This document shows positions 6,938-49,119 of a stretch of DNA of 64,000 nt, one piece after another. This DNA is from Methylotenera sp. (GTDB lineage: Bacteria > Pseudomonadota > Gammaproteobacteria > Burkholderiales > Methylophilaceae): positions 4,680 through 68,679 of the forward strand of contig JANMOP010000014.1 of assembly GCA_031369365.1 (NCBI GenBank), in the 5' to 3' direction. The notes beneath the pieces are model-generated. The model was not told where the DNA came from, did not search any database, and saw only the letters and a program-made list of their open reading frames with translations. A program made the translations under genes and the position numbers. The first letter of the stretch is position 1; every line of letters starts with the position of its first letter.

Positions 6938-7042
6938 GGTGGGCTATTATAAAATTAAACCCGTGATAAAACTTAAGTAATTAGTTAAACTAAAACTGCA
7001 AAACTAAATAACGGGTAAAATTGTGATAAGTGCAGTGAATAA

Positions 7043-7135
7043 GGCAGTAAGCGTGGGGGTGTTAATGAACGAACAGCCCACGTCGATGAGTCGTCGTTGA
7101 CCTAGTGTGACTCTGCCGATATAGATTAGGCGCAC
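7043..7135 (+). ncRNA. Candidate structured small RNA (unassigned)
   Basis: GC-rich island in an AT-rich spacer. Closing stem GGCAG/CTGCC, hairpin CGTGGG..TGTT/AACA..CCCACG, and hairpin GTCGATGA/TCGTTGAC whose G-U pairs favour the + strand. Confidence 0.25.
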
Positions 7136-7185
7136 TAAACTTTTTCAGCTATGTTGAAATCTTGAGCTATTTTGCGAGTTCTAAT

Positions 7186-8570: not shown

Positions 8571-8912
8571 TTACAGTTTTAACGCCGCTTTAATGCGTTT
8601 TAAAGTTTGCGTCACAATATTGCCATCTAACTGATAATGTTTGTGTAACGGTTGTATTACTTGCCAACTGGCTTTAGTGCCCGCTGGAAAAGTCACCAAA
8701 TCACCCTTACCAAAGCTAATAGGCGCGCCACCTGTGGCGGTAATGACGCATTCACCCTCTAAAATATAAGCGATTTCTTGCTCTGGAAATGTCCAATCAA
8801 ATGTAGAAACTTCTTTTTGCCACGTTGGCCAATTGCTCACACTTAAAGCGCCCAAGCGGGCTTGGGTGGGGTTGTTTTCTACAATAATTTGGTTGACTAA
8901 AATTTGGCGCAT
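8571..8912 (-). CDS. Cupin-domain protein (DUF861-like)
   Basis: WPTWQKEVSTFDW, E.AYILEG and GDLV.FPAG...W cupin motifs; AAGGA RBS. Confidence 0.8.
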   Translation of the reverse strand: MRQILVNQIIVENNPTQARLGALSVSNWPTWQKEVSTFDWTFPEQEIAYILEGECVITATGGAPISFGKGDLVTFPAGTKASWQVIQPLHKHYQLDGNIVTQTLKRIKAALKL

Positions 8913-9081
8913 ATTTTTCCTTTTTTGAGGCTGTCAGTTTAACGCAATGTGATAGATTAAGTCGCAACTTGCACTAAAATAATCAGTCTTAATCATTGAG
9001 CGCATCAACTTTAGCTACTAAATTTGCCCATATATTTTTTGACGCTCAGAGATGAGCTTGAAAGTGGAAAGGTGAACTATT

Positions 9082-9639
9082 ATGAAAACGCTAACAATCA
9101 ACAAGGTGTTGGTGGGCGAAGCTTTGGTGGGCGAAGGCAACGAGGTTGCGCATATTGATTTGATTATAGGGCCGCGTGGCAGTGCGGTAGAAACTGCTTT
9201 TTGCTTAACGCTCACTAATCAAAAACGCGGCGATAATGCTCTGCTAGCCGTGATAGCCCCAAATCTTATGGCGAAACCGCCAACCGTGATGTTCAACAAA
9301 GTAGATATTAAAAACGCGAAACAAGCGGTGCAAATGTTTGGCGCAGCGCAATGTGGTGTCGCGGCAGCAGTGGCCGATTGTGTGAAAGCAGGCGTGATAC
9401 CGATGGATGAAGCAGACGACGTATTTATTTGCGTTGGCGTATTTATTCATTGGGATGCCGTAGATGACTCAAAAATTCAAGATTGGAATTATGCAGCGAC
9501 CAAGCTAGCGATTGAGCGTGCCGTAGCGGGCTTGCCAAGCGCTAAAGAGGTGATAGAGCAAGCGGTTGCCGCGCATCACCCACTGGCTGCACATGATTAC
9601 AAGCAGGCAAACATAAGCAGGCTTCGCCAAGCTGCTTAA
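9082..9639 (+). CDS. fae: Formaldehyde-activating enzyme homologue (divergent paralogue)
   Basis: [41 protein letters not shown] and VGVFIHW match Fae. Confidence 0.9.
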
Positions 9640-9702
9640 AACTGGCATGGCACATTGCCAACTAGGTAGTAGAATATCATTTTTATACCTAGTTGGCAGA
9701 CT

Positions 9703-10641
9703 ATGCAGGTTAATTTAGCGCAAGCAATTACATTACTTAAAAATGGCGATGTGGTCGCCATACCCACCGAAACAGTGTATGGCTTGGCCGCAGATGCGAC
9801 TAATGAAGCGGCTTTGCTACAAGTGTATGCGATTAAACAACGCCCTGCCGATAATCCACTCATCGTACATATTGCTGATGCAAACCAAGTGCATAATTGG
9901 GCGGCGGAATTCCCACCGCTTGCACAAAAGTTGGCACTAGCGTTTTGGCCAGGCCCATTTACCTTGGTTTTAAGGGCAAGAGATAGCGTTTCAAACATTG
10001 TGCGCGGTAATCATCCAACAGTGGCGTTGCGTGTGCCTAATCATCCAATTACTCAGCAACTACTTAAGCAAAGTGGTTTGGCGTTGGCTGCGCCTTCTGC
10101 CAATAAATTCACGCAACTTAGCCCTACTACGGCTGCCCATGTGGCTTCTGGCTTGGGTGACAGCGTGCCAGTGTTAGATGGCGGTGCATGTAAAGTGGGT
10201 ATTGAATCGACCATAGTTGCCGTAATAGGTGAAGAATGGCAATTATTACGTTTAGGCATGTTGCCAGAAGCCAGCATTGAAGCGCTTGCTGGCAGGCCTG
10301 CTTTAAGCTCAAAACAGGCTATTAGAGTACCAGGCCAACATGTGCTGCATTATTCACCCAAAACACCAGTTAAGCTGTTTCAATCACGCAAAGAGCTCAT
10401 TAATTTTGTTCTAACTCCGCAAAATAACTGTGCTGCTTTGTTATTTGGAGCAGGTGAATACCCAAGTTGCCACTACGTGCAATTGCCAAATCAAGCCGCA
10501 AAAGCCGCAGAAGCCTTATACGGCGCGCTGCATCAGCTAGACGCGTTGCAAGTAACGCAATTACTGGTAGAAATGCCGCCGCGCACGACAGAATGGGCAG
10601 CGGTTAATGATAGGCTTAGTCGCGCAGCGCATCAGGGTTAA
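9703..10641 (+). CDS. tsaC: L-threonylcarbamoyl-AMP synthase, Sua5 long form
   Basis: PTETVYGLAAD, K.RP.DNPLIVH, AAPSANK and GIEST motifs, plus a C-terminal Sua5 domain (PG...HYSP; LYGALHQLD). Confidence 0.9.
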   Translation: MQVNLAQAITLLKNGDVVAIPTETVYGLAADATNEAALLQVYAIKQRPADNPLIVHIADANQVHNWAAEFPPLAQKLALAFWPGPFTLVLRARDSVSNIVRGNHPTVALRVPNHPITQQLLKQSGLALAAPSANKFTQLSPTTAAHVASGLGDSVPVLDGGACKVGIESTIVAVIGEEWQLLRLGMLPEASIEALAGRPALSSKQAIRVPGQHVLHYSPKTPVKLFQSRKELINFVLTPQNNCAALLFGAGEYPSCHYVQLPNQAAKAAEALYGALHQLDALQVTQLLVEMPPRTTEWAAVNDRLSRAAHQG

Positions 10642-12513: not shown

Positions 12514-13254
12514 ATGCAGACACAATCGCACATTGCTGATATTTCCACACCTACAGGCGTAATGCGAACTTATATTCATAGGCCAACGCATAACAAACCT
12601 GTGCCTGCCATTCTATTTTACTCCGAAATTTTTCAACAAACAGGTCCAATTGAGCGTGCTGCTATTTACATGGCGGGTCAAGGCTTTGCGGTGCTGGTGC
12701 CAGAGGTGTTTCACGAGCTAAACCCCATTGGCACGGTGCTGGGCTACGACGACGCAGGCCGCATTAAAGGCAATAACGACAAGGCCGCCAAAGATGTACA
12801 GGGCTACGATACCGATAATCGTGCCATGATAGATTATTTAACCACGCAAGATTGGTACAACGGCAATGTGGGCGCAATGGGTTATTGCATAGGCGGGCAT
12901 TTGGCTTTCCGCGCGGCTTTGCAGACAGAGGTTAAAGCGACCGCCTGTTTTTACGCTACCGATTTACACATTAATAACATCCCCAGTAAGCCTAATCAGC
13001 ACAGTATGGAGCGCCTAGCCGATATTAAAGGCGAGCTAATGATGATTTGGGGCAAGCAAGACAATCACGTACCCGTAGCAGGCCGCCAGCTAGTACATCA
13101 AAAAATGACAGACGCCAATTTAAATTTTACTTGGCATGAATTTAATGCACAGCACGCGTTTATGCGCGATGGCGAAGCGCGTTACGATTCAGAGTTAGCG
13201 GGCTTATGTTATTTAATGAGTACCATGTTATTTAATCGAACACTTAAAACTTAG
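12514..13254 (+). CDS. Dienelactone hydrolase family protein
   Basis: GYCIGG nucleophile elbow, QDNHV and HAFMRD motifs. Confidence 0.9.
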   Translation: MQTQSHIADISTPTGVMRTYIHRPTHNKPVPAILFYSEIFQQTGPIERAAIYMAGQGFAVLVPEVFHELNPIGTVLGYDDAGRIKGNNDKAAKDVQGYDTDNRAMIDYLTTQDWYNGNVGAMGYCIGGHLAFRAALQTEVKATACFYATDLHINNIPSKPNQHSMERLADIKGELMMIWGKQDNHVPVAGRQLVHQKMTDANLNFTWHEFNAQHAFMRDGEARYDSELAGLCYLMSTMLFNRTLKT

Positions 13255-13340
13255 CAGCAATTTCCCCCAAAACAAAAGCCACAAGCCTTTGTTTTATTTT
13301 AACTTAAAGCGCTAAAAGAGCGCAGACAAAGAGAAAAGAT

Positions 13341-14855
13341 ATGACTACAAAAAATGCTGATATTGGCCTAGTTGGCCTTGCCGTGATGGGGCAAAATCTT
13401 GCCCTTAATATTGCCGATCACGGCTATACCATTGCGGTGTACAACCGCGATCCTAAAAAAATGACTAACTTTATTAAAGAGTGCAAGGCAAACGAACCTT
13501 CGCACGCTAATGTGGTGGGTCATGCTGATTTGGCTTCTTTTGTGCTTAGCATTAAGCGACCGCGCAAAATCGTGCTGCTGGTAAAAGCAGGCAGCGCGAC
13601 CGATGTAACGATTAATGCGTTACTGCCGTTTTTAGAAGAAGGCGACATTATTATTGACGGCGGCAATTCATTATGGACAGACACCATTCGCCGCGAAAAA
13701 GAGTTAGCGGTAAAAGGCATTGATTTCATTGGTTCTGGTGTATCTGGCGGCGAAACTGGCGCGCGTTTTGGCCCAAGTTTAATGCCATCTGGCACGCGCA
13801 AAGCTTGGGCGAGTTTGGAGCCAATTTGGCGTGACATTGCTGCAAAAGTAGATTCAGTCACAGGTGAGCCAATGGAAGGCGGCAAGCCAGGCAAACCAGT
13901 AGTAGGTGGTTTTTCATGTGCGGAATATATTGGCCCAGATGGCTCAGGGCATTATGTGAAGATGGTGCACAACGGTATTGAATATATCGATATGCAGCTT
14001 ATTTGCGAGGCCTATTGGCTCATGAAAAACTTACTTGGTATGCCAGCTGATGAAATCGGTAAAATATTCGCAGAGTGGAACAAAGGCGAATTATCCAGTT
14101 TCTTAATCGAAATTACCGCCGATATTTTGCAACAAAAAGATCCAATGACTAAAGGCTTCTTGGTGGATCAAATTTTAGATACCGCAGGTCAAAAAGGCAC
14201 CGGCCAATGGACAGCCGCCAATGCGCTTGAGCTTGGTGCGCCTGCTAACGCCATCGCCGCAGCGGTGTATGCGCGCGCACTCTCTAGCTTGAAAGAGGAA
14301 CGTGTAGAAGCCAGCAAAATTTTAAAAGGCCCAGCAATTAAGCATGAGACAGACAAAAAAGCCATTATTGATGCGATTAAAAACGCGCTGTATTGCAGCA
14401 AAATATGCGCTTACGCACAAGGTTTTCAGCTGATTGATAAAGCACAAGTGGCGTATAACTGGAAGCTTAACTTTGGCGAGCTGGCACAAATTTGGCGCGG
14501 TGGTTGTATTATTCGCGCCCGCTTTTTGCAAAAAATCACCGAAGCTTACGCACTTAATTCACGTTTGAAAAACTTGATGCTAGACCCATACTTCACTAAA
14601 GCCATGAACGACGGCCAAGCTGGCTGGCGTAAAGTGATTGCTTTAGCGGTGACTAACGGTATTCCCGCACAAGGCTTTAGTGCGGCGATGGCATATTACG
14701 ATGGCTACCGCAGTGCCGATTTACCAGCTAACTTATTGCAAGGCCAACGTGATTATTTTGGCGCGCATACTTACGAGCGTAAAGATCAGCCTCGCGGTCA
14801 GTTCTACCATTTAGATTGGCCAGAACCAAAACGTCCGCAATTGCTGATTGAATAA
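13341..14855 (+). CDS. gnd: 6-phosphogluconate dehydrogenase, decarboxylating (NADP)
   Basis: [40 protein letters not shown] and [10 protein letters not shown] motifs. Confidence 0.97.
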
Positions 14856-24404: not shown

Positions 24405-24440
24405 AGTTAAAAATAGCAATGAATCAAACTTATAAAACAT

Positions 24441-24552
24441 TCCCTCGCCCAAGCAGGGCTGGGGCTAAAGTAAGTGCTAGGGAGGGGGTAGAAACTAAGC
24501 ATATTCAAGCTTTCACCCCCATTCCAACCTTCCCCCTAAAAAGGGGAAGGAG
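24441..24552. repeat. Degenerate intergenic member of the CCCTC(T/G)CCC...GGGAGAGGG palindromic family
   Basis: Left half CCCTCGCCC...GGGAGGGGG. The reverse complement of 24514-24552 matches metH unit 29377-29415 at 28/39 positions. Confidence 0.65.
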
Positions 24553-27605: not shown

Positions 27606-30600
27606 ATGCAATCTGCAACAGAAATTAAACTACGCAAATTACTCTCTCAACGCATCCTAATTTTAGATGGCGCGATGGGTACCATGATTCAGCAATATAA
27701 GCTGACTGAGGCGGATTATCGCGGTGAACGATTTAAGGATTTTGCCTCACCCGCAGGCCAGCGCGAGTTATTTGTAAAAGGCAATAACGAGCTGTTAAGT
27801 TTGACTGCGCCGCACATCATTCAAGAAATACACGAGCAATATCTGGCCGCTGGCGCGGATATCATCGAAACTAATACTTTTGGTGCCACATCCGTGGCGC
27901 AAGACGATTACCACATGGCGCATTTGGTGTATGAGATGAATGTGGCTTCTGCCAAATTAGCAAAGGCTGCTTGCGATAAATATAGCACGCCCGATAAACC
28001 ACGCTTTGTAGCTGGCGCGCTTGGGCCAACGCCCAAAACCGCCAGCATTTCACCCGACGTGAATGATCCCGCCGCTCGTAACGTCAATTTTGACCAGTTA
28101 GTAAACGCTTACTTAGCGCAAACGCGCGCATTGGTAGAAGGTGGCGCGGATATTTTAATGGTGGAAACTATCTTTGATACGCTCAACTGCAAAGCCGCTT
28201 TGTTTGCGATTGATACGTTTTTTGAAGAGGTGGGTTACACATTGCCGCTGATGATTTCTGGCACGGTGACCGATGCTTCTGGTCGCATATTATCAGGTCA
28301 AACCGTGACCGCGTTTTGGAACTCAGTTCGCCACGCCAAACCGCTGACGATTGGCTTAAATTGTGCCTTAGGCGCCACTTTAATGCGGCCTTATGCCGAA
28401 GAATTAAGCAAAATCGCCGATACATTCGTGTGCATTTACCCCAATGCTGGCTTACCGAATCCAATGAGCGATACGGGTTTTGATGAAACGCCTGACGTGA
28501 CTTCTAGCTTAGTGAAAGAGTTTGCCAATAGCGGCTTTATCAATATCGCGGGCGGTTGCTGCGGGACTACGCCAGCACACATTAACGCGATTTATGAACA
28601 AGTTAAAAATATCGCCCCAAGAAAGGTGCTCCAGCAGCCAATAGCCATGCGGCTTGCAGGGCTAGAGCCTTTTATCATTAATGAAGAATCACTATTCGTC
28701 AACGTAGGCGAGCGCACCAATGTGACAGGCAGCAAAGCCTTTGCGCGGCTGATTATTAATGAGCAATACGACGAAGCGTTAAGTGTAGCGCGGCAGCAGG
28801 TAGAAAACGGCGCACAAGTCATCGACATTAATATGGATGAAGGCATGCTGGACGCCGTAAAAGCCATGACACATTTCCTGAATTTAATCGCCAGTGAGCC
28901 TGACATTGCCCGTGTGCCAATTATGATTGATTCCAGCAAATGGTCTGTCATTGAGGCTGGGCTTAAATGCGTGCAAGGCAAAGCCATTGTCAATTCTATC
29001 TCGATGAAAGAAGGCGAAGCCGAATTTTTGCGCCAAGCCAAGTTGTGTCGCCGTTACGGCGCAGCGGTGATTGTGATGGCATTTGACGAAAAAGGTCAAG
29101 CGGATACCTTTGCGCGTAAAACGGAAATCTGTGAAAGGGCGTATCGCTTGTTGGCGGGAGATCCAGAGTATCACCGTAGTCAACTATTGCAAGAAAACAG
29201 GCTAGAAAATGCACAAACACTGGCGTTTTTAAGTCCCTCGCCCGCGAGCGGGAGAGGGGTGGGGGAGAGGGGCGAAATATCCATCACCGCCCCTCTCCCT
29301 AGTCCTCTCCCGCCTGCGGGCGAGGGGACACACCCGCCCTCCCACTTGATGGGGTTGGGCATGCTCGAACTTAATACTCCCTCCCCCTTGATGGCGGAGG
29401 GTTGGGGAGAGGGTGAAAACAAGCGAGAGGATGAAATGTATGACAAGGGCATAGGCTTTCCGCCAGAAGACATCATCTTCGACCCTAACATTTTTGCCAT
29501 TGCCACCGGCATTGAAGAACACAACAACTACGCGGTGGATTTTATCGAGGCCACACGCTGGATTAAGCAAAATCTGCCACATGCCAAAATTTCGGGCGGC
29601 GTCTCGAATGTAAGCTTTAGCTTTCGCGGTAACGATCCCGCGCGCGAGGCCATTCACACGGTTTTCCTCTACCACGCCATTAAAGCAGGTATGACCATGG
29701 GTATTGTGAATGCGGGCATGATGGGCATTTATGATGATCTCGCACCAGAGTTAAAAGAGCGGGTGGAAGATGTAGTGCTAAATCGCAGGGATGACGCCAC
29801 CGAGCGCATGATTGAAATTGCTGGCACGCTAGTGGCAGGTGGTAAAAAAGTGGCTGCAACGCTAGAGTGGCGCGGCTCTGTGGATGATCCTGTGAGCGTG
29901 CAAAAACGCTTAGAACACGCCATGGTGCATGGCATTACCGACTTTATAGTGGAAGACATCGAAGAAGCGCGTGCGGCGGTTGAAGCATCTGGCGGCAGAC
30001 CAATTCACGTCATCGAAGGCCCACTGATGGACGGCATGAACGTGGTAGGTGATTTGTTTGGCCAAGGCAAAATGTTTTTGCCGCAAGTGGTGAAATCTGC
30101 TCGCGTGATGAAAACTGCCGTGGCACATTTAATCCCGTTTATTGAGGCCGAAAAAGTCTTAGAGCAAGAGCGCACAGGCGTGGTAGCCAAACCAAAAGGC
30201 AAAATCGTCATCGCCACTGTTAAGGGTGATGTGCATGACATCGGAAAAAATATTGTGAGTGTAGTATTGCAATGCAATAACTTTGAAGTAGTCAACATGG
30301 GCGTGATGGTACCAGCGGCGGAGATTTTAGCCATGGCAAACGCCGAAAACGCCGATATTATTGGCTTGGGCGGCCTGATTACGCCAAGCTTAGAAGAAAT
30401 GACGCACATTGCCAAAGAAATGCAGCGCGACCCCTATTTTGCTAATGCAAAAACGCCGCTGCTTATTGGCGGTGCCACATGCTCGCGCGCGCACACAGCG
30501 GTAAAAATCGCCCCGCATTACGATGGCCCCATTGTCTATGTGCCAGATGCCTCGCGCAGTGTAAGCGTGATGCAAAATCTACTCACACCCGAAACGCGCG

Positions 30601-31658
30601 GCGCGTATTTGGCCGAGATTCAAGCGGATTACCAAAAAGCGCGCGAGCAACATGCCAACAAAAAAGGCGTGCCAATACTCACTATTGCCGATGCGCGCGC
30701 AAACAAATCTAAATTAAGTTTTGCAGGTGAATTTGCACCCGTAAAGCCCAAGTTTATTGGTCGCCGCGTGTTTAAAAATATCGATTTAAGCTTAATCGCG
30801 CAATACATTGATTGGGCGCCATTCTTCCAAACGTGGGATTTAGCAGGCTTTTATCCCGCTATTTTGACTGATGAAGTAGTGGGCGAAGCCGCGACAAAAG
30901 TATTCGCCGAAGCGCAAAGTATGCTAAAAAAAATCATTGATGGCCGCTGGCTAACGGCTAACGGCGTCATCGCGCTAATGCCCGCCAATAGTGTGAATGA
31001 CGACGATATTGAAATTTATACTAACGAAAATAGAGATGAAGTTGCCTTCACCTATTACGGTATGCGCCAACAAAGCGTAAAGCCAGTGATAGAAGGCGTG
31101 GCGCGGCCAAACCAATGTTTAAGTGATTTTATTGCGCCTAAAAATAATGCAGATGATTACATCGGCTTATTTGCCGTAACCGCAGGTTTAAGTACTGAAA
31201 AAATCGAAAAACGCTTTATAGACGCGCAAGATGACTACAGTGGCATTATGTTCAAAAGCCTTGCAGATAGGCTTGCTGAAGCGTTTGCAGAATACATGCA
31301 CGAACGCATCCGCACCGATTTATGGGGTTATGCGAGCGACGAAAAGTTGCCTATAGACGCGTTAATCAAAGAAGAATATGCAGGCATTCGCCCTGCGCCT
31401 GGCTATCCTGCTTGCCCAGACCATACGGTAAAAGCCGATATGTTCAAGCTGCTGCAATGCGATGAAATTGATATGCAGCTCACCGATAGCTTCGCCATGA
31501 TGCCTGCGGCGGCAGTATCAGGTTTTTACTTTGCACATAAAGACGCTAAATACTTTAGTGTGGATAAAATTGGCACAGACCAACTAGAAGACATGGCAAA
31601 ACGCAGAAACTTGCCTAAAAGCTATTTAGAGCGCTGGTTAGCGCCGAATTTGGGATAA
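27606..31658 (+). CDS. metH: Cobalamin-dependent methionine synthase carrying a ~96-aa in-frame repeat-derived insertion
   Basis: Hcy domain (DGAMGT, GLNC, GGCCG), pterin domain (GERTNV, DSSK, IIFDPN), B12 domain (GDVHDIGKN) and AdoMet domain ([12 protein letters not shown]). One continuous 1350-aa ORF. Confidence 0.97.
29235..29415 (+). repeat. Intragenic palindromic repeat cluster in metH: 94-bp hairpin doublet plus two related units
   Basis: Arms at 29235-29273 and 29289-29328 are near-perfect inverted repeats. There is a partial unit near 29333-29360 and a full unit at 29377-29415. Confidence 0.9.
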
Positions 31659-31661
31659 ATT

Positions 31662-32303
31662 ATGCTGAAAAATGGCTATCAAATTGTTTATGTTTTAACA
31701 AACCCTGCAATGCCAGGGCTGGTAAAAATTGGCAAAACAACAAATTTAGAAATTGAAGTAAGAATGCGTCAGCTATATGGAACGGGTGTTCCAGTCCCAT
31801 TTGATTGCGCTTTTGCTTGCCAAGTAAAAAACGCGCATGAAGTTGAAAGAGCTCTACATTATGCTTTTGGAAATATAAGAATCAACCCGAATAGAGAGTT
31901 TTTTAAAATTGAAGCAGAAAGAGTTATTTCAGTTTTAAAGCTGCTCAAAGTTGACGACATAACTGCTGAATTTGAAGATAAAATTGAGGCAGGTACAGAA
32001 GAGGTAGATAAGCAATCTGCACAAATATTTAAAGAAACAATAAGACCTAGAATGAATTTTCATGAGCTTGCCATCCCAAACGAATCTATATTAGTTTCTA
32101 GAGATGGAAGGTTGCGAGTTAAAGTTATTGAAGCAAAAAAAGTTGATTTAAACGGCGAAAAAATGTCTTTAACTATGGCCACGCGCCGTTTACTGGGTTT
32201 GCCAGACAATCAGCCAATTCAGCCTTCGCCCTATTGGTCGTTTAATGGCAGATCAGTTATAGATATTTACGAAGACTATCACTCCGTTGCTGAAGAAGAA
32301 TAA
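31662..32303 (+). CDS. T5orf172/MUG113-type GIY-YIG nuclease with a probable RAMA-like C-terminal domain
   Basis: IVYVLTNPAMPGLVKIGKT, RMRQL..TGVP.PF and VERALH..F...RINPNREFF match T5orf172. The C-terminus VDLNGEKMSL..A.....PSPYWSFNGRS is RAMA-like by eye. The gene is AT-rich. Confidence 0.8.
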   Translation: MLKNGYQIVYVLTNPAMPGLVKIGKTTNLEIEVRMRQLYGTGVPVPFDCAFACQVKNAHEVERALHYAFGNIRINPNREFFKIEAERVISVLKLLKVDDITAEFEDKIEAGTEEVDKQSAQIFKETIRPRMNFHELAIPNESILVSRDGRLRVKVIEAKKVDLNGEKMSLTMATRRLLGLPDNQPIQPSPYWSFNGRSVIDIYEDYHSVAEEE

Positions 32304-32305
32304 CT

Positions 32306-33829
32306 ATGCACATTCACATTTTAGGTATTTGCGGTACATTCATGGGCGGTATTGCGGTGCTAGCTAAGCAGGCAGGGCATCGCGTCACGGGGTGCGATGC
32401 GAATGTTTACCCGCCAATGAGTACGCAATTAGAATCTCAAGGCATTGAGTTGATTGAGGGTTTTTCACCCGAGCAAACCAAGTTAAACCCAGATATTTAT
32501 GTGATTGGTAATGTGGTTTCGCGCGGTAATCCGTTGATGGAAGAAATTTTGAACCTTGGTTTGCCCTACATTTCTGGCCCGCAATGGTTGGCAGAGAATG
32601 TGTTGCAAGGTAAGTGGGTGTTGGCTGTAGCGGGCACGCACGGCAAAACTACAACGTCTTCAATGCTCGCATGGATACTGGAATATGCGGGTTTGGCACC
32701 TGGCTTTTTGATTGGTGGGGTGCCTGAGAATTTTGGCGTTTCGGCAAGGCTGCCGCAAGTGCCGCCTGCGCAAACGCTCAAGCTAGCAAGCCCCTCGCCC
32801 GCAAGCGGGAGAGGGGTTGGGGTGAGGAGCGGCTCGACTATGGGCATTGCCCCTCACCCTAGCCCTCTCCCGCCTGCGGGCGAGGGGATAAAAAACAAAG
32901 GTGATTTTTCACCCTTTTTTGTCATCGAAGCAGACGAATACGACACCGCTTTTTTTGATAAGCGCTCAAAATTTGTGCATTACCGCCCGCGTACGGCTAT
33001 TTTGAACAATTTAGAGTTTGATCACGCGGATATTTTTGATGACCTAAATGCGATTGAAAAGCAGTTTCATCATTTGATTCGCACTGTGCCGCAAAACGGT
33101 TTGGTGGTGATTAATGGCAAAGAAGATAGCCTAAAACGTGTTTTAGATAAAGGCTGCTGGAGCACGGTGGAGCATTTTGGCACGGATGCGGATTGGCAGG
33201 CAAAAAATGCACTAGGCGATGGTAGTTTCGACGTATATTTTAAGAATGAGCGCCAAGCGCATTTAAGCTGGCAGATGTTGGGCGAACACAACAGAATGAA
33301 TGCGCTGGCAGCAATTGCCGCGGCGCGCCATGTGGGCGTGGCGCCGTGTATTGCCATTGAAGCGCTTAGCGAATTTAAAAACGTAAAACGCCGTATGGAA
33401 ACCAAAGGCGTGGTGAATAATATTACAGTTTACGATGATTTCGCGCATCATCCAACCGCTATCGAGACTACATTAGCAGGCCTGCGAAGCAAGCTGGACG
33501 CGGTTTCTGGCGATGCCAAAAAAGGTGCTAGAATAATAGCGGTGCTAGAGCCGCGCAGCAACACCATGAAGCTGGGTGTGATGAAAGACGCGCTGCCTGC
33601 CAGTTTAAAACATGCAGATTTGGTGTTTTGTTATGGCGCAAATTTAGGTTGGGATGCAACAGAGGCATTAAAACCGATTGCAAATAAAGCCAAAACATTC
33701 GATGATTTAACTATGCTAGTAAACGCAATAAGCGCAGCAGCTAAATCGGGTGACCATATTCTAGTGATGAGTAATGGTGGTTTTGGTGGCGTGCATCAAA
33801 AAATTATTGATTCATTAGCGGAAAAATAA
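32306..33829 (+). CDS. mpl: Murein peptide ligase Mpl carrying an in-frame hairpin insertion
   Basis: MHIHILGICGTFMGG, AGTHGKTTT, FVIEADEYDTAFFDKRSKF, DDFAHHPTAI and EPRSNTM motifs. Confidence 0.97.
   Translation: MHIHILGICGTFMGGIAVLAKQAGHRVTGCDANVYPPMSTQLESQGIELIEGFSPEQTKLNPDIYVIGNVVSRGNPLMEEILNLGLPYISGPQWLAENVLQGKWVLAVAGTHGKTTTSSMLAWILEYAGLAPGFLIGGVPENFGVSARLPQVPPAQTLKLASPSPASGRGVGVRSGSTMGIAPHPSPLPPAGEGIKNKGDFSPFFVIEADEYDTAFFDKRSKFVHYRPRTAILNNLEFDHADIFDDLNAIEKQFHHLIRTVPQNGLVVINGKEDSLKRVLDKGCWSTVEHFGTDADWQAKNALGDGSFDVYFKNERQAHLSWQMLGEHNRMNALAAIAAARHVGVAPCIAIEALSEFKNVKRRMETKGVVNNITVYDDFAHHPTAIETTLAGLRSKLDAVSGDAKKGARIIAVLEPRSNTMKLGVMKDALPASLKHADLVFCYGANLGWDATEALKPIANKAKTFDDLTMLVNAISAAAKSGDHILVMSNGGFGGVHQKIIDSLAEK
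32792..32888 (+). repeat. Intragenic 97-bp hairpin doublet in mpl
   Basis: Left arm is 33/36 and right arm 38/40 identical to the metH copy; loop is 18 nt versus 15 nt. Confidence 0.92.
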
Positions 33830-33832
33830 ACA

Positions 33833-34837
33833 TTGGCCGCTGTTATTAAACAAACCGAAGTGGCAGCGGTAGCATTAGCCAACATAGTGAGCAAGCTTAA
33901 AACATTAAGTGCGTTTGCGGTAGCAATATGGGTTTCTATCGCGATTCATGCAGCAATCTTAACTATTCATTTTCAGCCCGAGCTCAAAAAGCTCAAAGAC
34001 AGCTTACCTTCGCTAGAGGTAGTTTTAGTCAATGCTAAAACTAAAAGTGCGCCCGATAAAGCTGAATTATTAGCCCAAGCCAATTTAGATCGCGGTGGCA
34101 ATACCGAGGCTAATCGCAAGATGAAAACCGCGCTGCCTGCGCCCAAAGAGAAAACTACCGAAGTTAAATTGCAGCCAAATTCTGAAGCGCGTAGTGCAGC
34201 TAAATCGGCCAAAATGAAAGCACTTGAGGCGCGTGAACAAAAGCGTGTGGATGAGCTGGAAAAACAAGCGCAAGAGCTGCTAACACAAATTAAATCGACA
34301 AAAAAAATAGAATCGAATCCTACCCAAAATGTAGCTTCGGCCGAACCTGAGCTGGGCGAACAAAAAACCGAAGCAAAATCGTTAGATCGTGCAGAATTAA
34401 TTGCGGCCAGCCTAGAAATGGATAGGCTACAAGCACAAATTGATAAGCAACAAGACGAATACCAGAAACGTCCTAAAAAGAAATATATTGGGGCACGCAC
34501 TAAAGAGTACCGATTCGCTTTATATGTGGAATCGTGGCGGCAAAAAGTGGAGCGTATTGGCAATATGAATTACCCCGAGGCGGCAAAAACACAAAAGTTG
34601 TATGGGCAATTACGCATGACGGTTGCTATAAAAGCCGATGGTAGCTTAGAAAGCGTGGTGATTGACCAGCCATCAAATCACAAAGTGTTAGACGAAGCGG
34701 CCAAGCGCATTGTAGAGCTGGCAGCGCCGTATGCGATTTTCCCTGAGGATATTAGGCGCGATACCGATATCTTATACATTACACGCACCTGGACATTTAC
34801 GCAGGAAGATTTACTAGCGACTAAAGGTTCAGATTAA
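33833..34837 (+). CDS. TonB/TolA-family energy transducer
   Basis: N-terminal TM (SIAIHAAIL), LEVVLVN, a coiled coil, and a TonB-C-like tail (YVESWRQKVERIG..NYP; ITRTW.F). TTG start is uncertain. Confidence 0.8.
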   Translation: MAAVIKQTEVAAVALANIVSKLKTLSAFAVAIWVSIAIHAAILTIHFQPELKKLKDSLPSLEVVLVNAKTKSAPDKAELLAQANLDRGGNTEANRKMKTALPAPKEKTTEVKLQPNSEARSAAKSAKMKALEAREQKRVDELEKQAQELLTQIKSTKKIESNPTQNVASAEPELGEQKTEAKSLDRAELIAASLEMDRLQAQIDKQQDEYQKRPKKKYIGARTKEYRFALYVESWRQKVERIGNMNYPEAAKTQKLYGQLRMTVAIKADGSLESVVIDQPSNHKVLDEAAKRIVELAAPYAIFPEDIRRDTDILYITRTWTFTQEDLLATKGSD

Positions 34838-35148
34838 TGACTGATTACTATCAGCACCACGTATTTTTCTGCTTAAATCAACGCGAGCATGGCGAAGCAT
34901 GTTGCATGAATAAAGGCGCCGAAGCGGCGTTTGACCACATGAAAGCGCGCGTGAAAAAACTAGGCTTAAACGGCGAAGGTAAAGTGCGTATTAACCGTTC
35001 TGGCTGTTTGGATAGATGCGGGCTTGGGCCATTAATGGTGATTTATCCGCAAGCCGTTTGGTACACATTTGTTGATAATGACGATATTGATGAAATTATC
35101 GAAAGCCATCTGGTGAATGACAAAGTAGTAGAGCGTTTGGTTGTGTAG
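34837..35148 (+). CDS. Thioredoxin-like [2Fe-2S] ferredoxin
   Basis: HVFFCLN...C, RSGCLDRC..GP..VIYP..VWY motifs. Confidence 0.92.
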   Translation: MTDYYQHHVFFCLNQREHGEACCMNKGAEAAFDHMKARVKKLGLNGEGKVRINRSGCLDRCGLGPLMVIYPQAVWYTFVDNDDIDEIIESHLVNDKVVERLVV

Positions 35149-35205
35149 GAGCGACGACCCCGTCGCGAAATAATATGCAAATCGTGACGGGGTCGTCGCT
35201 CCTAC
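35145..35205. repeat. GTAG-family REP doublet (REPIN) that overlaps the stop codons of both convergent genes
   Basis: GTAGGAGCGACGACCCCGTCGCGA, a 13-nt spacer, then an inverted copy (23/24 identical). TAG 35146-35148 and minus-strand TAG 35204-35202 lie within the GTAG ends. Confidence 0.88.
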
Positions 35206-35639
35206 ATAGCGCAATTAATATGTGCGCTTATTTTTTCTTTTAGTAATTGTTTAGATGCACTGGAAAGGTTGCTGGTATTGCCTTTACGCATCTTATCGCC
35301 CCAATGACTATTGGGAAAATGTTTGTCATCTGCAAAGCGCGGAATGATATGCCAATGCACATGCGGCGTTTTGTTGCCAAGGCTCGCCAGGTTAATTTTA
35401 TCGGGGTGAATCACTTCGCGCATCGCGGTTTCTACAGCAAAAACCACTGTCATCATACGCACGCGATTTTCAGGCGGCAAATCAGTCATTTCTTTGATGT
35501 GCTCTAAGAGTTCAACGCGGCAATAGGCGGGGTAATCCGCGTCGTTTAGTAACACCACGCGGCAAAAATCGTCTTGCCAAAGTATTTCATGTGGGCTGGG
35601 TTGGCCTTGTAAGCTAGCAATGCATAGTGGGCAGGTCAT
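35202..35639 (-). CDS. HIT family protein
   Basis: CPLC, KINLASLGN and histidine triad PHVHWHIIPR. Confidence 0.9.
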   Translation of the reverse strand: MTCPLCIASLQGQPSPHEILWQDDFCRVVLLNDADYPAYCRVELLEHIKEMTDLPPENRVRMMTVVFAVETAMREVIHPDKINLASLGNKTPHVHWHIIPRFADDKHFPNSHWGDKMRKGNTSNLSSASKQLLKEKISAHINCAM

Positions 35640-47400: not shown

Positions 47401-49119
47401 TCTATAATCAACTGGGTGCGTGGCGAAGATAATTTTGGCGATGAGAAGAGCCTCTGCCCGCCAGGAACAGCCGCAGGCACAGCTAATTGCCCCAGTACTA
47501 AGGTAACCGTTCGCCCATCTATCCATGGAGATGTCTTGCATTCACGGCCAGTTGCGCTTAATTATGGAGGCACCACAGGTGTTGTGGTTTACTATGGCAC
47601 CAATGACGGTGTTTATCGTGCAGTCAATGGTAATAAGGTCAACCCAGCTGGAAGTTCGCTACCTGTTCCAGGAAGCGAACTGTGGGGCTTCGTTCCAAAT
47701 GAGTTCTTTGCCAAGTTAAATCGCCAACGTAGCAATAGTCCGCTACTGTCGTTGCCGTCAACGCCAAACGGAATTACACCTTCTCCAGAGAAAAAAGATT
47801 ATTTTGCCGATGGGCCAACTAGTGTCTATCAGCTGCTGAATGCCGATGGCACAACGAATAAAGCTTATATTTATCTCACAATGCGCCGAGGCGGCGATTT
47901 CATCTACGCGCTGGACGTATCTGACCCTACTAATCCTAAGTTTTTATGGAAGCTGGATCCAACAGGATTAACTACGCCAAGCGGTTTTAGTGCGAGTACG
48001 AATTTTGCCGAGCTAGGGCAGACTTGGTCTAATCCAAAAGTGAACTTGATTAAAGGGTATGCGAATCCAGTAATGATTTTTGGGGCGGGTTACTCTGCCT
48101 CGCAAGATGCTCAACCAGCTACAGTCGATACCGTGGGTCGCGGAGTTTATATTGTAGATGCAGTCACTGGCGCCCTAGTTTGGCGAGCTACTTATGGCAC
48201 TAGCTCGGCATGTAGCGGTACGTCCACCACAGCAAGCTGTACTGTATCGGGCATGGATTACAGCATTCCATCTGATATTACCTTGATGGATAGGGATAGC
48301 GATGGCTATATAGATCGTTTGTACGCAGGTGATATGGGCGGTAATGTATGGCGCGTCGATTTACAACGCTCGGGTAACACGACTAATAACACCCCTGACT
48401 TCTGGAGAGTCAATCAGGTAGCATCACTAGGCGGTGGTGGCGTTCCCTTACGTAAGTTCTTCTTTCCACCAGACGTAATACCTACTAATGACTTCGATTT
48501 AGTAATAGCTATTTCTGGCGATCGAGAACATCCGCTGTCATCTACAAGCACAAGAGATAGAGTTTTTGCGCTGCAAGATCTGACTGGAAACGACGGAAGT
48601 AGCTTAACAACTATCACTGACAGTAGTCTATTTGATGCCACAACCACGCTTTATAGTGCTGCAACAGGTTCTAATCAAGGCTACTTTAAAGACTTTCTAG
48701 CTGCAGAGAAAGGGGTTAACGCACCACTAACAGTGGCTGGTTTTACCTATTTCGGCACCAATCAACCTACAGCTGCAAATTCATGTACTGCCAACCTAGG
48801 GCTAGCCAAAGGTTACAGGCTTGACCCCTTTACGGGAGCGATTAATTTTGTAGAATTTGATGGTGGCGGTCTTCCTCCTTCGGCAGTGGCTGGGGTGGTA
48901 AACCTAATTCTGCAGGGTGAAAATACAGAGAGTTCAGTGCGATTCTGTATTGGCTGTGGTGGCGCAGGCGGTGGCGCTCCTATTGGCGCAGGCGGTGGCG
49001 CTAGCAGTAGCCCTGGCTCTGACCCTAGTGGCTGTAATACGGCGCTTGGTGCTTGCAGTCCCCCCGTCAGCGTTCCAACCAGCCGCACTAGAACTTACTG
49101 GTATCAGGAAATAGATTGA
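44470..49119 (+). CDS. pilY1: PilY1/PilC tip adhesin, 1549 aa, with an internal repeat insert
   Basis: Signal peptide, EDTDIY, vWA-like N-domain, W.GN.KQY, INWVRG, HGDVLHSRP, Ca-binding DRDSDGYID and C-terminal RTYWYQ. Confidence 0.92.
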   Translation: MKKIQLILAGLLIALMAHVSTSMAEDTDIYSGRGGAAGTPNIMIIIDNASNSNAQMTACTYLDGSTPTGSNQGSKSLDNYMCALDNLTNLLTTKADGSALVNLGITTQAGVYLGLTPVNNAVYTGIYPHTAGQTNRQVLSKAIRALSTVSGQATQGTSFQETWAYYTGGNGGSTNVGIKSGVAYAGTNATTGCQKNFAIFISGVTNSAHANTNGNEITKLTASIDNAVTSGAITATEGTALKVRIGGSSEESPWAVEWARFMHGVDINTTTEGTGVQSITTYSIAAGDPVYPAAMGSMERYIRNTAQYGGGKYFAAKSYADIYQSILRILNEVQAVNSVFSASSLPVSVNAQGTFLNQIYMGMFRPDETGAPRWVGNMKQYQFVATRNVSTNEIDLFLGDSLGDPAISAGGTGFIAPDAVSYWTCGGNPSIRACSPVADPTAGFWANDSKGVGTTYDLPDGEFVEKGGAAQILRLANLTADYTTTAGSATNPRKLYTYCPSGASCNATLSNSANAFSTANVNIANNAFGASSSLVVSSIVRTGTTALVTTSATHNYANGSTVTISGADQSEYNVTQAINFANPNSANTFTITGLPDYPTTPSAGAYTAALHNASAQAISSLSVATATTVNANGCTSGTIPNINCVQVTVTLPSHGYSNGDSVVIAGVSPAQYSGTFTIASVTTNMFTYKVSVTPSSPSKNAYSLVLPSPAAKTITSITKSGSTNTVSASAHGFLAGQSVTISGCNAGYNGTWSVSATNLATGSFVILSPSGNPGACAAGASVVLSNPAISISVGNISRASATASVATATAASAVTHNATYNLSYVSGTDTNEAGYAPKPGARTVLVTCASGTTCTTFTFALSTTFSTTLTTSSATVALSSNPVTIVAGKITRSATTATVTGVSNTFTNGQFIDIGVSGSAIGTESAYLSPAAGWQITCPISCSTAFSFGPVILSPSTPATTGSTIRAFQGSTPPDKNSIINWVRGEDNFGDEKSLCPPGTAAGTANCPSTKVTVRPSIHGDVLHSRPVALNYGGTTGVVVYYGTNDGVYRAVNGNKVNPAGSSLPVPGSELWGFVPNEFFAKLNRQRSNSPLLSLPSTPNGITPSPEKKDYFADGPTSVYQLLNADGTTNKAYIYLTMRRGGDFIYALDVSDPTNPKFLWKLDPTGLTTPSGFSASTNFAELGQTWSNPKVNLIKGYANPVMIFGAGYSASQDAQPATVDTVGRGVYIVDAVTGALVWRATYGTSSACSGTSTTASCTVSGMDYSIPSDITLMDRDSDGYIDRLYAGDMGGNVWRVDLQRSGNTTNNTPDFWRVNQVASLGGGGVPLRKFFFPPDVIPTNDFDLVIAISGDREHPLSSTSTRDRVFALQDLTGNDGSSLTTITDSSLFDATTTLYSAATGSNQGYFKDFLAAEKGVNAPLTVAGFTYFGTNQPTAANSCTANLGLAKGYRLDPFTGAINFVEFDGGGLPPSAVAGVVNLILQGENTESSVRFCIGCGGAGGGAPIGAGGGASSSPGSDPSGCNTALGACSPPVSVPTSRTRTYWYQEID

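Follow-up and report, generated by a model that had tools for sequence, protein, structure and literature searches.

Rickettsia palindromic elements (RPEs) sit in-frame in many unrelated housekeeping genes, whose proteins are thought to be functional (PMC10969869; cited in PMC3733652). Intragenic copies are also known for repetitive extragenic palindromes (REPs) of the GTAG and CGTC superfamilies, which are defined by an unpaired tetranucleotide at one end and linked to REP-associated tyrosine transposases (RAYTs) (PMC3733652). These intragenic REPs occur as singles, inverted dimers and clusters coding for up to 43-82 aa, with uvrA, uvrD and helicases among their hosts (Di Nocera et al. 2013, PMC3733652), and many of the host genes are repair genes (PMC3733652). 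[quoted passage not shown] Here we examine a 64,000-nt stretch of Methylotenera sp. DNA (GenBank assembly GCA_031369365.1, contig JANMOP010000014.1, positions 4,680 to 68,679 of the forward strand; hereafter the window), in which metH, the gene for cobalamin-dependent methionine synthase, carries a 99-codon insert. With a probability of roughly 80%, this insert is a cluster of REP-like stem-loops, including one REPIN-like doublet, that lies in-frame at a permissive hot-spot and is both tolerated and translated.

The insert in metH and a second doublet in mpl

Open reading frame (ORF) and Pfam evidence place metH at 27606..31658 on the + strand, with zero stops or frameshifts across its 1350 codons. 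The 1350-aa product has five domains: the homocysteine, pterin-binding, cap, B12-binding and activation modules are all present, and S-methyl_trans, Pterin_bind, B12-binding_2, B12-binding and Met_synt_B12 each score above the Pfam cut-off, with the Pterin_bind match broken in two at residue 516. Identity to Methylotenera MetH is 82-92% and, once the insert is removed, 92-95% to insert-free orthologues. We regard the gene as the resident metH copy because its order, AI-2E transporter - metH - mpl, matches that found in relatives.

In alignments, the insert (29154..29450, + strand) spans A517-G615 and takes the place of a 3-4-residue loop. AYRLL precedes A517 and IGF follows G615, and the insert itself opens with AGDP and closes with DKG. 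A preliminary description of this DNA had counted 99 residues after AYRLL in a frame that stays open, against about 3 in the canonical Escherichia coli MetH loop; each of these statements agrees with our results, and the E. coli sequence matches the one quoted at that time. The 120 nearest database orthologues all belong to Methylotenera or Methylophilus and are 82-92% identical to the window's protein, and 113 of them lack the insert and read LLV(S/A/N)(T/Q)GFPPEDI. A profile search for diverse MetH returned 120 sequences (vertebrates, Bacteroidota, Burkholderiales, others), of which 119 could be scored; the spacing from RAY to [DE]IIFDPN is 11-12 residues in 119/119 of these, vs 108 in the Methylotenera window. 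Alignments to solved structures, the Bacteroides folate domain 3k13 and the human 9ssp/4ccz, are interrupted at the insert site, with 0-2 residues between the flanks. The metH insert occupies a loop of otherwise nearly invariant length.

From its 5' end, the insert begins with a non-repeat arm that encodes its N-terminal part (29154..29231, + strand). This arm has a GC content of 0.44, like the rest of the genome, and is predicted to form a helix (MetH 520-542; AlphaFold2 (AF2) predicted local distance difference test score (pLDDT) 81-88). Its first 10 aa (AGDPxxHRxx) are common to all 7 insert-bearing alleles, so that the 26-aa stretch reported here in the preliminary description exists but is not unique, as it had been called. 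The arm is followed by two inverted copies of a repeat unit, A. Covariance model R1, built from 35 copies of this unit and run unfiltered over the 64-kb window, matches the left arm of the doublet at 29232..29276 (+ strand; 51.4 bits, E 2e-9), with the exact 23-nt family motif at 29235, and the inverted right arm at 29285..29329 (- strand; 49.9 bits, E 5e-9). The two ~40-nt units, inverted about a 13-17-nt spacer, pair as a near-perfect 97-nt hairpin (29233-29329; arms 29235-29264 and 29297-29326) with an RNA fold of -84 kcal/mol (z = -8.4; 0/200 shuffles equal it) and a GC content of 0.71, vs 0.45 for the window.

Downstream of the doublet lies a degenerate small stem-loop (29337..29359, + strand; PPSHLMGLG; -12.8 kcal/mol) that is 83% identical to the stem-loop of unit B, is not picked up by R1 and forms the weakest part of the insert. 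Unit B (29376..29419, + strand; stem-loop 29379-29413) represents a sister family and agrees with the relatives' B sequence at 33/35 positions. Its stem pairs CCCTCCCCC with GGCGGAGGG, its pattern reads CCCTCCCCC..GG.GGAGGG, and its tail, GGGGAGAGGG, is as in unit A; it matches R1 over the full length yet weakly (E 0.035). In metagenomes, contig depth over unit B shows a ~40-fold excess. The insert ends in a 12-aa C-terminal non-repeat arm (29417..29450, + strand), also of GC 0.44 and predicted by AF2 to contain a helix (MetH 605-614), which is found in allele P0005 as well. The preliminary description had recognised the hairpin doublet and the two further units downstream, both of which we recover, and had overlooked this last arm. 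A 19-nt direct repeat at 29193 and 29415 (79% identical; chance expectation ~0.1 pairs by a rough hand estimate) was considered as a target-site duplication and is treated as weak and compatible with chance.

At a distance of 3.4 kb downstream, mpl carries a second in-frame A doublet (32789..32889, + strand; R1 E 7e-11 and 6e-10; mpl ORF 32306..33829). The gene encodes UDP-N-acetylmuramate tripeptide ligase, and the doublet, which has the same orientation and reading frame as that in metH, splits the Mur_ligase_M domain; its hairpin (32791-32887) folds at -88.2 kcal/mol (z -9.95). In both metH and mpl, the doublets have REPIN-type structure, with two inverted units, a short spacer and a long hairpin. 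That the metH units belong to a widespread REP-like family, present in mpl as well, had not been recognised in the preliminary description. The Mpl loop is empty in two relatives, where it reads RLPQVPKQDAKSISPFF; two other relatives hold a B/B' doublet there, the filled states including B/B' with a third repeat type (LMVRQAHHER), and a Gallionellaceae genome (L061) has a single in-frame A unit in the same loop. The gap between metH and mpl (31662-32303) is a variable gene slot, occupied by a T5orf172/MUG113-domain gene in the window and in locus L123, by a Fic-domain gene in L124 and L127, by a PRiA4_ORF3 gene in L122 and by nothing in L125.

Alleles and structural position of the insert

Seven metH inserts sit at the identical codon and share their start and a ...G-IGF end. 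Allele P0018 adds 26 aa with one short palindrome, and P0085 adds 40 aa with a VRPELVEG-type repeat. P0002 (51 aa) and P0005 (58 aa) each combine an SPTRGEG hairpin with unit B, and P0023 (55 aa) has no recognisable repeat. P0001 (71 aa) carries the A doublet and B, and the allele of the window (99 aa) the A doublet, the degenerate unit and B. This series of seven alleles, from 26 to 99 aa at one site and with differing unit combinations, bears out the earlier proposal of successive, nested insertions at a hot-spot. It supports a history, read from the allele sequences, in which an older non-repeat extension may have gained different repeat units at its tip.

Close relatives differ patchily in whether they carry the insert, a pattern missed in the preliminary description, and the seven alleles are scattered in a neighbour-joining (NJ) tree of 121 MetH, built with the insert columns removed and no bootstrap. 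Outside the site, P0001 is ~97% identical to P0003, which has no insert, and P0023 is ~95% identical to P0061, which likewise has none, while the insert-bearing P0001 and P0023 are ~89% identical to each other (visual estimates on BLASTP alignments; loci L121, L127 and L126). In DNA, the flanks of P0001 and P0003 share ~95% identity, and a dense patch of substitutions over the 25 nt that precede the insert results in K510E and D514R. Sliding-window nucleotide identity gave no clear recombination peak at the insert, with the alleles all ~80-85% identical in DNA. Because the insert is present so patchily amid proteins that are ~95-97% identical, a short allelic patch swapped by homologous recombination, in either direction, would account for the distribution better than repeated clean insertion and excision, and the pattern points away from stepwise insertion in a single lineage as the only process.

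The position of the insert in the folded enzyme was examined in an AF2 model of MetH residues 345-770, made from a diverse 113-sequence alignment, with a mean pLDDT of 81.9 and a predicted template modelling score (pTM) of 0.78; a model of residues 1-770 with 41 close orthologues (pLDDT 52) was not used for geometry. The pterin barrel of the model superposes on that of 3k13 (Bacteroides) with a template modelling (TM) score of 0.96 and a root-mean-square deviation of 2.0 A. The modelled insert departs from the barrel behind helix 502-517 and rejoins it ahead of strand 623-626 (IIFD). A segment of pLDDT <50 (549-603) coincides with the repeat-coded residues (~543-603) and is bounded by the predicted helices 520-542 (pLDDT 81-88) and 605-614. 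The DPN motif, at the opposite end of the IIFD strand, is invariant in the diverse alignment. In TIM barrels, alpha-to-beta loops lie at the strands' N-terminal ends, on the other side from the methyltetrahydrofolate face, and this topology would put the insert on the non-catalytic face of the barrel. The preliminary description had supposed an alpha-to-beta loop on the face opposite the active site and had proposed an AlphaFold model to locate it: the model does place the insert in such a loop of an intact barrel, with the face assigned from topology. Its suggestion that the RNA hairpins lie between domains was not borne out, as they fall within the pterin-binding domain, at the Pfam split.

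Distribution of the repeat unit

Across 122 aligned copies, the repeat has the consensus CCCCTCGCCCGC-TT-GCGGGAGAGGGG-NN-GGGGWGAGGG, with the short form CCCCTCGCCCGCTTGCGGGAGAGGGG..GGGGWGAGGG. Unit A, at ~40 nt, consists of a 9-11-bp GC stem (CCCCTCGCCCGC-NN-GCGGGAGAGGGG) with one conserved G.A mismatch and a GGGGWGAGGG tail; it folds at -19 kcal/mol, and the information content of its alignment is zero beyond both edges. It thus has the form of a REP in the broad sense of the term, being a short (20-40 nt), imperfect, GC-rich palindrome that is conserved and has sharp edges. The 122 copies are mostly single, with ~10/122 in same-family inverted doublets. When one genome per species was scanned for the exact pattern, the 23-nt motif was found at a minimum of 120 genome loci, and the taxa among the matches listed are Beta-, Gamma-, Alpha- and Deltaproteobacteria, Planctomycetota, Armatimonadota, Thermomicrobiales and Pasteurellaceae. 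No Rfam family covers unit A, a scan of the whole window at gathering scores returning nothing at the insert; literature searches found no published name for the unit, and searches with the literal repeat sequence gave nothing relevant.

In IMG/VR viral contigs, 85 stretches contain the exact motif, and phages are possible vehicles for the spread of the unit across phyla. One Mu-like phage contig (L195; IMGVR_UViG_3300006995_000018; for example the regions 8817-10466 and 12630-13880) holds seven unit copies, some of which lie in-frame within the portal protein (...GRGAGGEG at its C terminus) and within the Mu gpI protease/scaffold. Locus L053, in which two inverted units stand 760 nt apart, was considered as a transposase-bearing element and proved to hold non-coding repeat DNA only.

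The consensus of unit A is so GC-rich that it has zero stop codons in all six frames (translations include PLPQPLSRKRAR), which means that survival of a host frame is set by net length alone. In other genomes, 24 of 105 evaluable copies fall within an ORF that extends for 100 codons or more to either side, vs 176 of 354 random positions. By this crude test, the family is depleted in genes yet far from excluded, and it is mostly extragenic. Hosts of in-frame copies, confirmed by Pfam, include UvrD, UvrA (with two units), HsdM, PurL, a FolC-like Mur ligase and GcvP, as well as two HrpA-like helicases that hold the unit at different sites. This census of decorated proteins was made from DNA loci, by the ORF-spanning test and Pfam; the 68-aa peptide coded by the repeats, used as a protein query, gave no usable candidates.

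Relatives hold further intragenic and intergenic copies. Intergenic B-like units stand upstream of a ChlI/Mg-chelatase-family (comM-like) gene at L121:427-470, L124:2487-2552 and L127:253-296, and the corresponding place in the window (24439-24476) has at most a decayed B-like remnant (E 4.6). Elsewhere in the window, an Rfam Methylophilales-1 sRNA lies at 7025-7140 (94.2 bits, above the gathering score) and, with the MetH matches, assigns the window to Methylophilaceae (Methylotenera), and a composition scan marked a GC-rich stretch with repeated GGCGCAGGCGGTGGCGCT motifs at 48945-49032.

Interpretation and comparison with known repeats

Repeats are a classic cause of misassembly, and many metagenome contigs end at the unit edges (29232, 29271, 29379, 29416), which raises the question of a repeat-induced chimera or a collapsed repeat. 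Logan contigs of public metagenomes were aligned to the insert region of metH. Run X1 yielded a 391-nt contig over 29093-29483 with 0 differences, and runs X2-X5, from another study, yielded 349-425-nt contigs over 29069-29405 or 29069-29481 with 5-6 substitutions each; the 425-nt contig of X5 covers 29069-29481 with 6 mismatches and a 12-nt in-frame duplication. This tandem duplication (AGAAAATGCACA, after 29203, in runs X2-X5) adds 4 in-frame residues to the non-repeat arm and is the sole indel among the spanning contigs. An assembly artefact is extremely improbable when single contigs of two independent studies (X1 and X5) cross the whole insert with both junctions, which settles the misassembly concern of the preliminary description, and when homologous inserts occur at the identical codon in six other assemblies. 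Other contigs from the same samples join 29128-29131 to 29448-29457 via ...KRAYDLLV... and, judged by sequence, are uninserted alleles of co-occurring Methylotenera. It is also very unlikely that metH is an inactivated or decaying copy in which the insert is unselected damage. An insertion of ~100 aa could well disrupt a TIM barrel whose loop is otherwise invariant in length across MetH, but the five full domains score strongly without a stop or frameshift, identity outside the insert is 92-95%, synteny is conserved, the predicted barrel is intact, and even the population variant is in-frame.

Alternatively, the insert could be removed before the mature protein is formed, as an intein, an intron or by translational bypass. 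Such removal would suit a large, foreign, in-frame segment in a conserved enzyme, and the strong hairpin is reminiscent of the take-off and landing structures of bypass. We nevertheless find it highly improbable. Pfam recognises no family in the 99-aa insert, which starts with Ala, is followed by Ile and has no Cys/Ser/Thr nucleophile or His-Asn, as the preliminary description had implied in reporting no intein signature, and Rfam at E<=10 on 29050-29550 returned no intron, only sub-threshold miRNA-precursor-like hairpin matches. To our knowledge, 99 aa is below the length of known mini-inteins. Bypass would be unneeded in a frame that is open throughout, and removal would have to work for every one of the inserts of 26-99 aa, whose cores are unrelated. 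Co-option of the insert or of its RNA hairpin, whether as an interaction or regulatory loop or as a ribosome-pause or RNase III site that tunes expression or co-translational folding, also seems unlikely. The repeat-coded core is wholly different between alleles (A, B, VRPELVEG-type, none), which argues against a conserved function, even though the non-repeat arms are predicted helices (pLDDT 81-88) and partly conserved among alleles. Retention of the insert in-frame in several species-level lineages and the extreme stability of the hairpin would fit co-option, yet the same units occur in many unrelated proteins and in intergenic DNA, 113/120 of the closest MetH are insert-free, and the hairpin lies within a domain rather than at a boundary. 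No intrinsic terminator was found at the metH hairpin, which has no U-tract after it.

We therefore favor insertion of REP-like repeats at a tolerant site, and propose that non-autonomous, selfish repeats of this kind may have piled up at the tip of an older, lineage-restricted extension of the MetH loop. An insertion with a net length that is a multiple of three would leave the gene open, and such insertions would survive in permissive surface loops only. A unit once present may attract or exchange further units, which could give rise to the allele series in metH and, independently, to that in one Mpl loop. Two short helices would keep the repeat-coded loop off the barrel, on its non-catalytic face, and the insert segment, together with the two linked helix substitutions, may move among Methylotenera lineages by homologous recombination. 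Most likely, the insert is transcribed and translated as a Pro/Gly/Ser-rich disordered loop in an enzyme that still functions. The data show what the repeats are and how they are built and distributed, the intact frame, the structural position and the allele series. Translation, neutrality, self-targeting and a mobilising enzyme are what we infer for the insert, as is its retention in mRNA and protein, which has indirect support in that all alleles and the population indel keep frame.

Several points weigh against this interpretation. No indexed RNA run contains the insert locus, and the one metatranscriptome recovered corresponds to the conserved flank in other organisms. A 45-bp RNA duplex in a coding region could be costly, and neutrality is an assumption. 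No source was found for the two non-repeat arms (38 aa), and the case for patch recombination is built on the unbootstrapped NJ tree and pairwise identities. In the 64-kb window, R1 gave 5 matches, namely the four A arms of the metH and mpl doublets, with E from 7e-11 to 5e-9, and unit B, with zero intergenic; all copies in the window thus lie within metH or mpl and not in the extragenic location of REPs. A terminal GTAG or CGTC tag is absent from the consensus and from the alignment, which puts the unit outside both RAYT-linked REP superfamilies; by its sequence, it belongs with the untagged stem-loop repeats that, according to PMC3733652, still await cataloguing. No transposase, RAYT or other, was found in or linked to the loci examined, and no target-site duplication was evident in comparisons of filled and empty sites.

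The locus offers a clean natural experiment, with seven alleles (26-99 aa), >100 insert-free orthologues, solved structures and an easy complementation assay, in which the tolerance of a TIM barrel for a disordered insert and the cost of a 45-bp mRNA duplex are measurable. It also carries a warning for annotation, since PLPxAGEG or GEGWGEG stretches in proteins would be translated repeat DNA and not domains. A wider proposal, which we hold tentatively and consider rather doubtful, is that the ~40-nt GGGAGAGGG unit constitutes an unnamed, cross-phylum, phage-carried and coding-compatible family that time and again colonises the same surface loops in core enzymes (MetH, Mpl, UvrA, UvrD, HrpA, PurL, FolC, GcvP, phage portal), seeds hot-spots for further units and spreads from species to species as allelic patches. 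If this were true, the GGGAGAGGG family would drive loop expansion generally in free-living bacteria, in the manner of RPEs but beyond Rickettsia.

Among known systems, RPEs resemble the metH unit in that insertion is in-frame, ORFs stay open, the peptide falls at permissive positions and selfish DNA resides in coding sequence. The two differ in organism, unit length (100-150 bp vs 40 nt) and GC content, so that the likeness is one of behavior only: RPEs are Rickettsia-specific and ~100-150 bp long, whereas the metH unit is ~40 nt (95 nt as a doublet), very GC-rich and present in several phyla and in phage, and most of its copies elsewhere lie outside long ORFs. Intragenic GTAG and CGTC REPs share both the behavior of the metH unit and its kinds of host gene, but the metH unit is untagged and the 99-aa insert exceeds the clusters in PMC3733652. 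A GTAG-tagged REP doublet is present in the window at 35144-35206 (TGTAGGAGCGACGACCCCGTCGCGA and its inverse, with a 13-nt spacer), between the convergent ORFs 34837..35148 (+) and 35202..35639 (-); it has the classic REP position and a sequence unrelated to the metH unit, which indicates that the genome holds at least two stem-loop repeat families in different niches.

The likeness to REPINs and to bacterial interspersed mosaic elements (BIMEs) is in architecture, with two inverted imperfect palindromes, a short spacer, one long hairpin, and an occurrence both dispersed and clustered. However, REPINs are extragenic and accompany a RAYT gene, whereas the metH and mpl doublets are intragenic. 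MITEs have terminal inverted repeats derived from insertion sequences and target-site duplications. At the metH insert we found neither ends resembling those of an insertion sequence nor a convincing duplication: inversion of the ends is trivial in a palindromic doublet, and the flanking direct repeat is weak. In-frame colonisation by palindromic repeats is a known phenomenon, of which the metH insert is a new example and not a new kind of element. It is set apart by the size of the insert, the nearly invariant loop that it occupies, the allele series, a further hot-spot in mpl and the spread of the unit across phyla and in phages, and it shows that in-frame colonisation of essential genes reaches beyond both Rickettsia and the GTAG/CGTC REPs.

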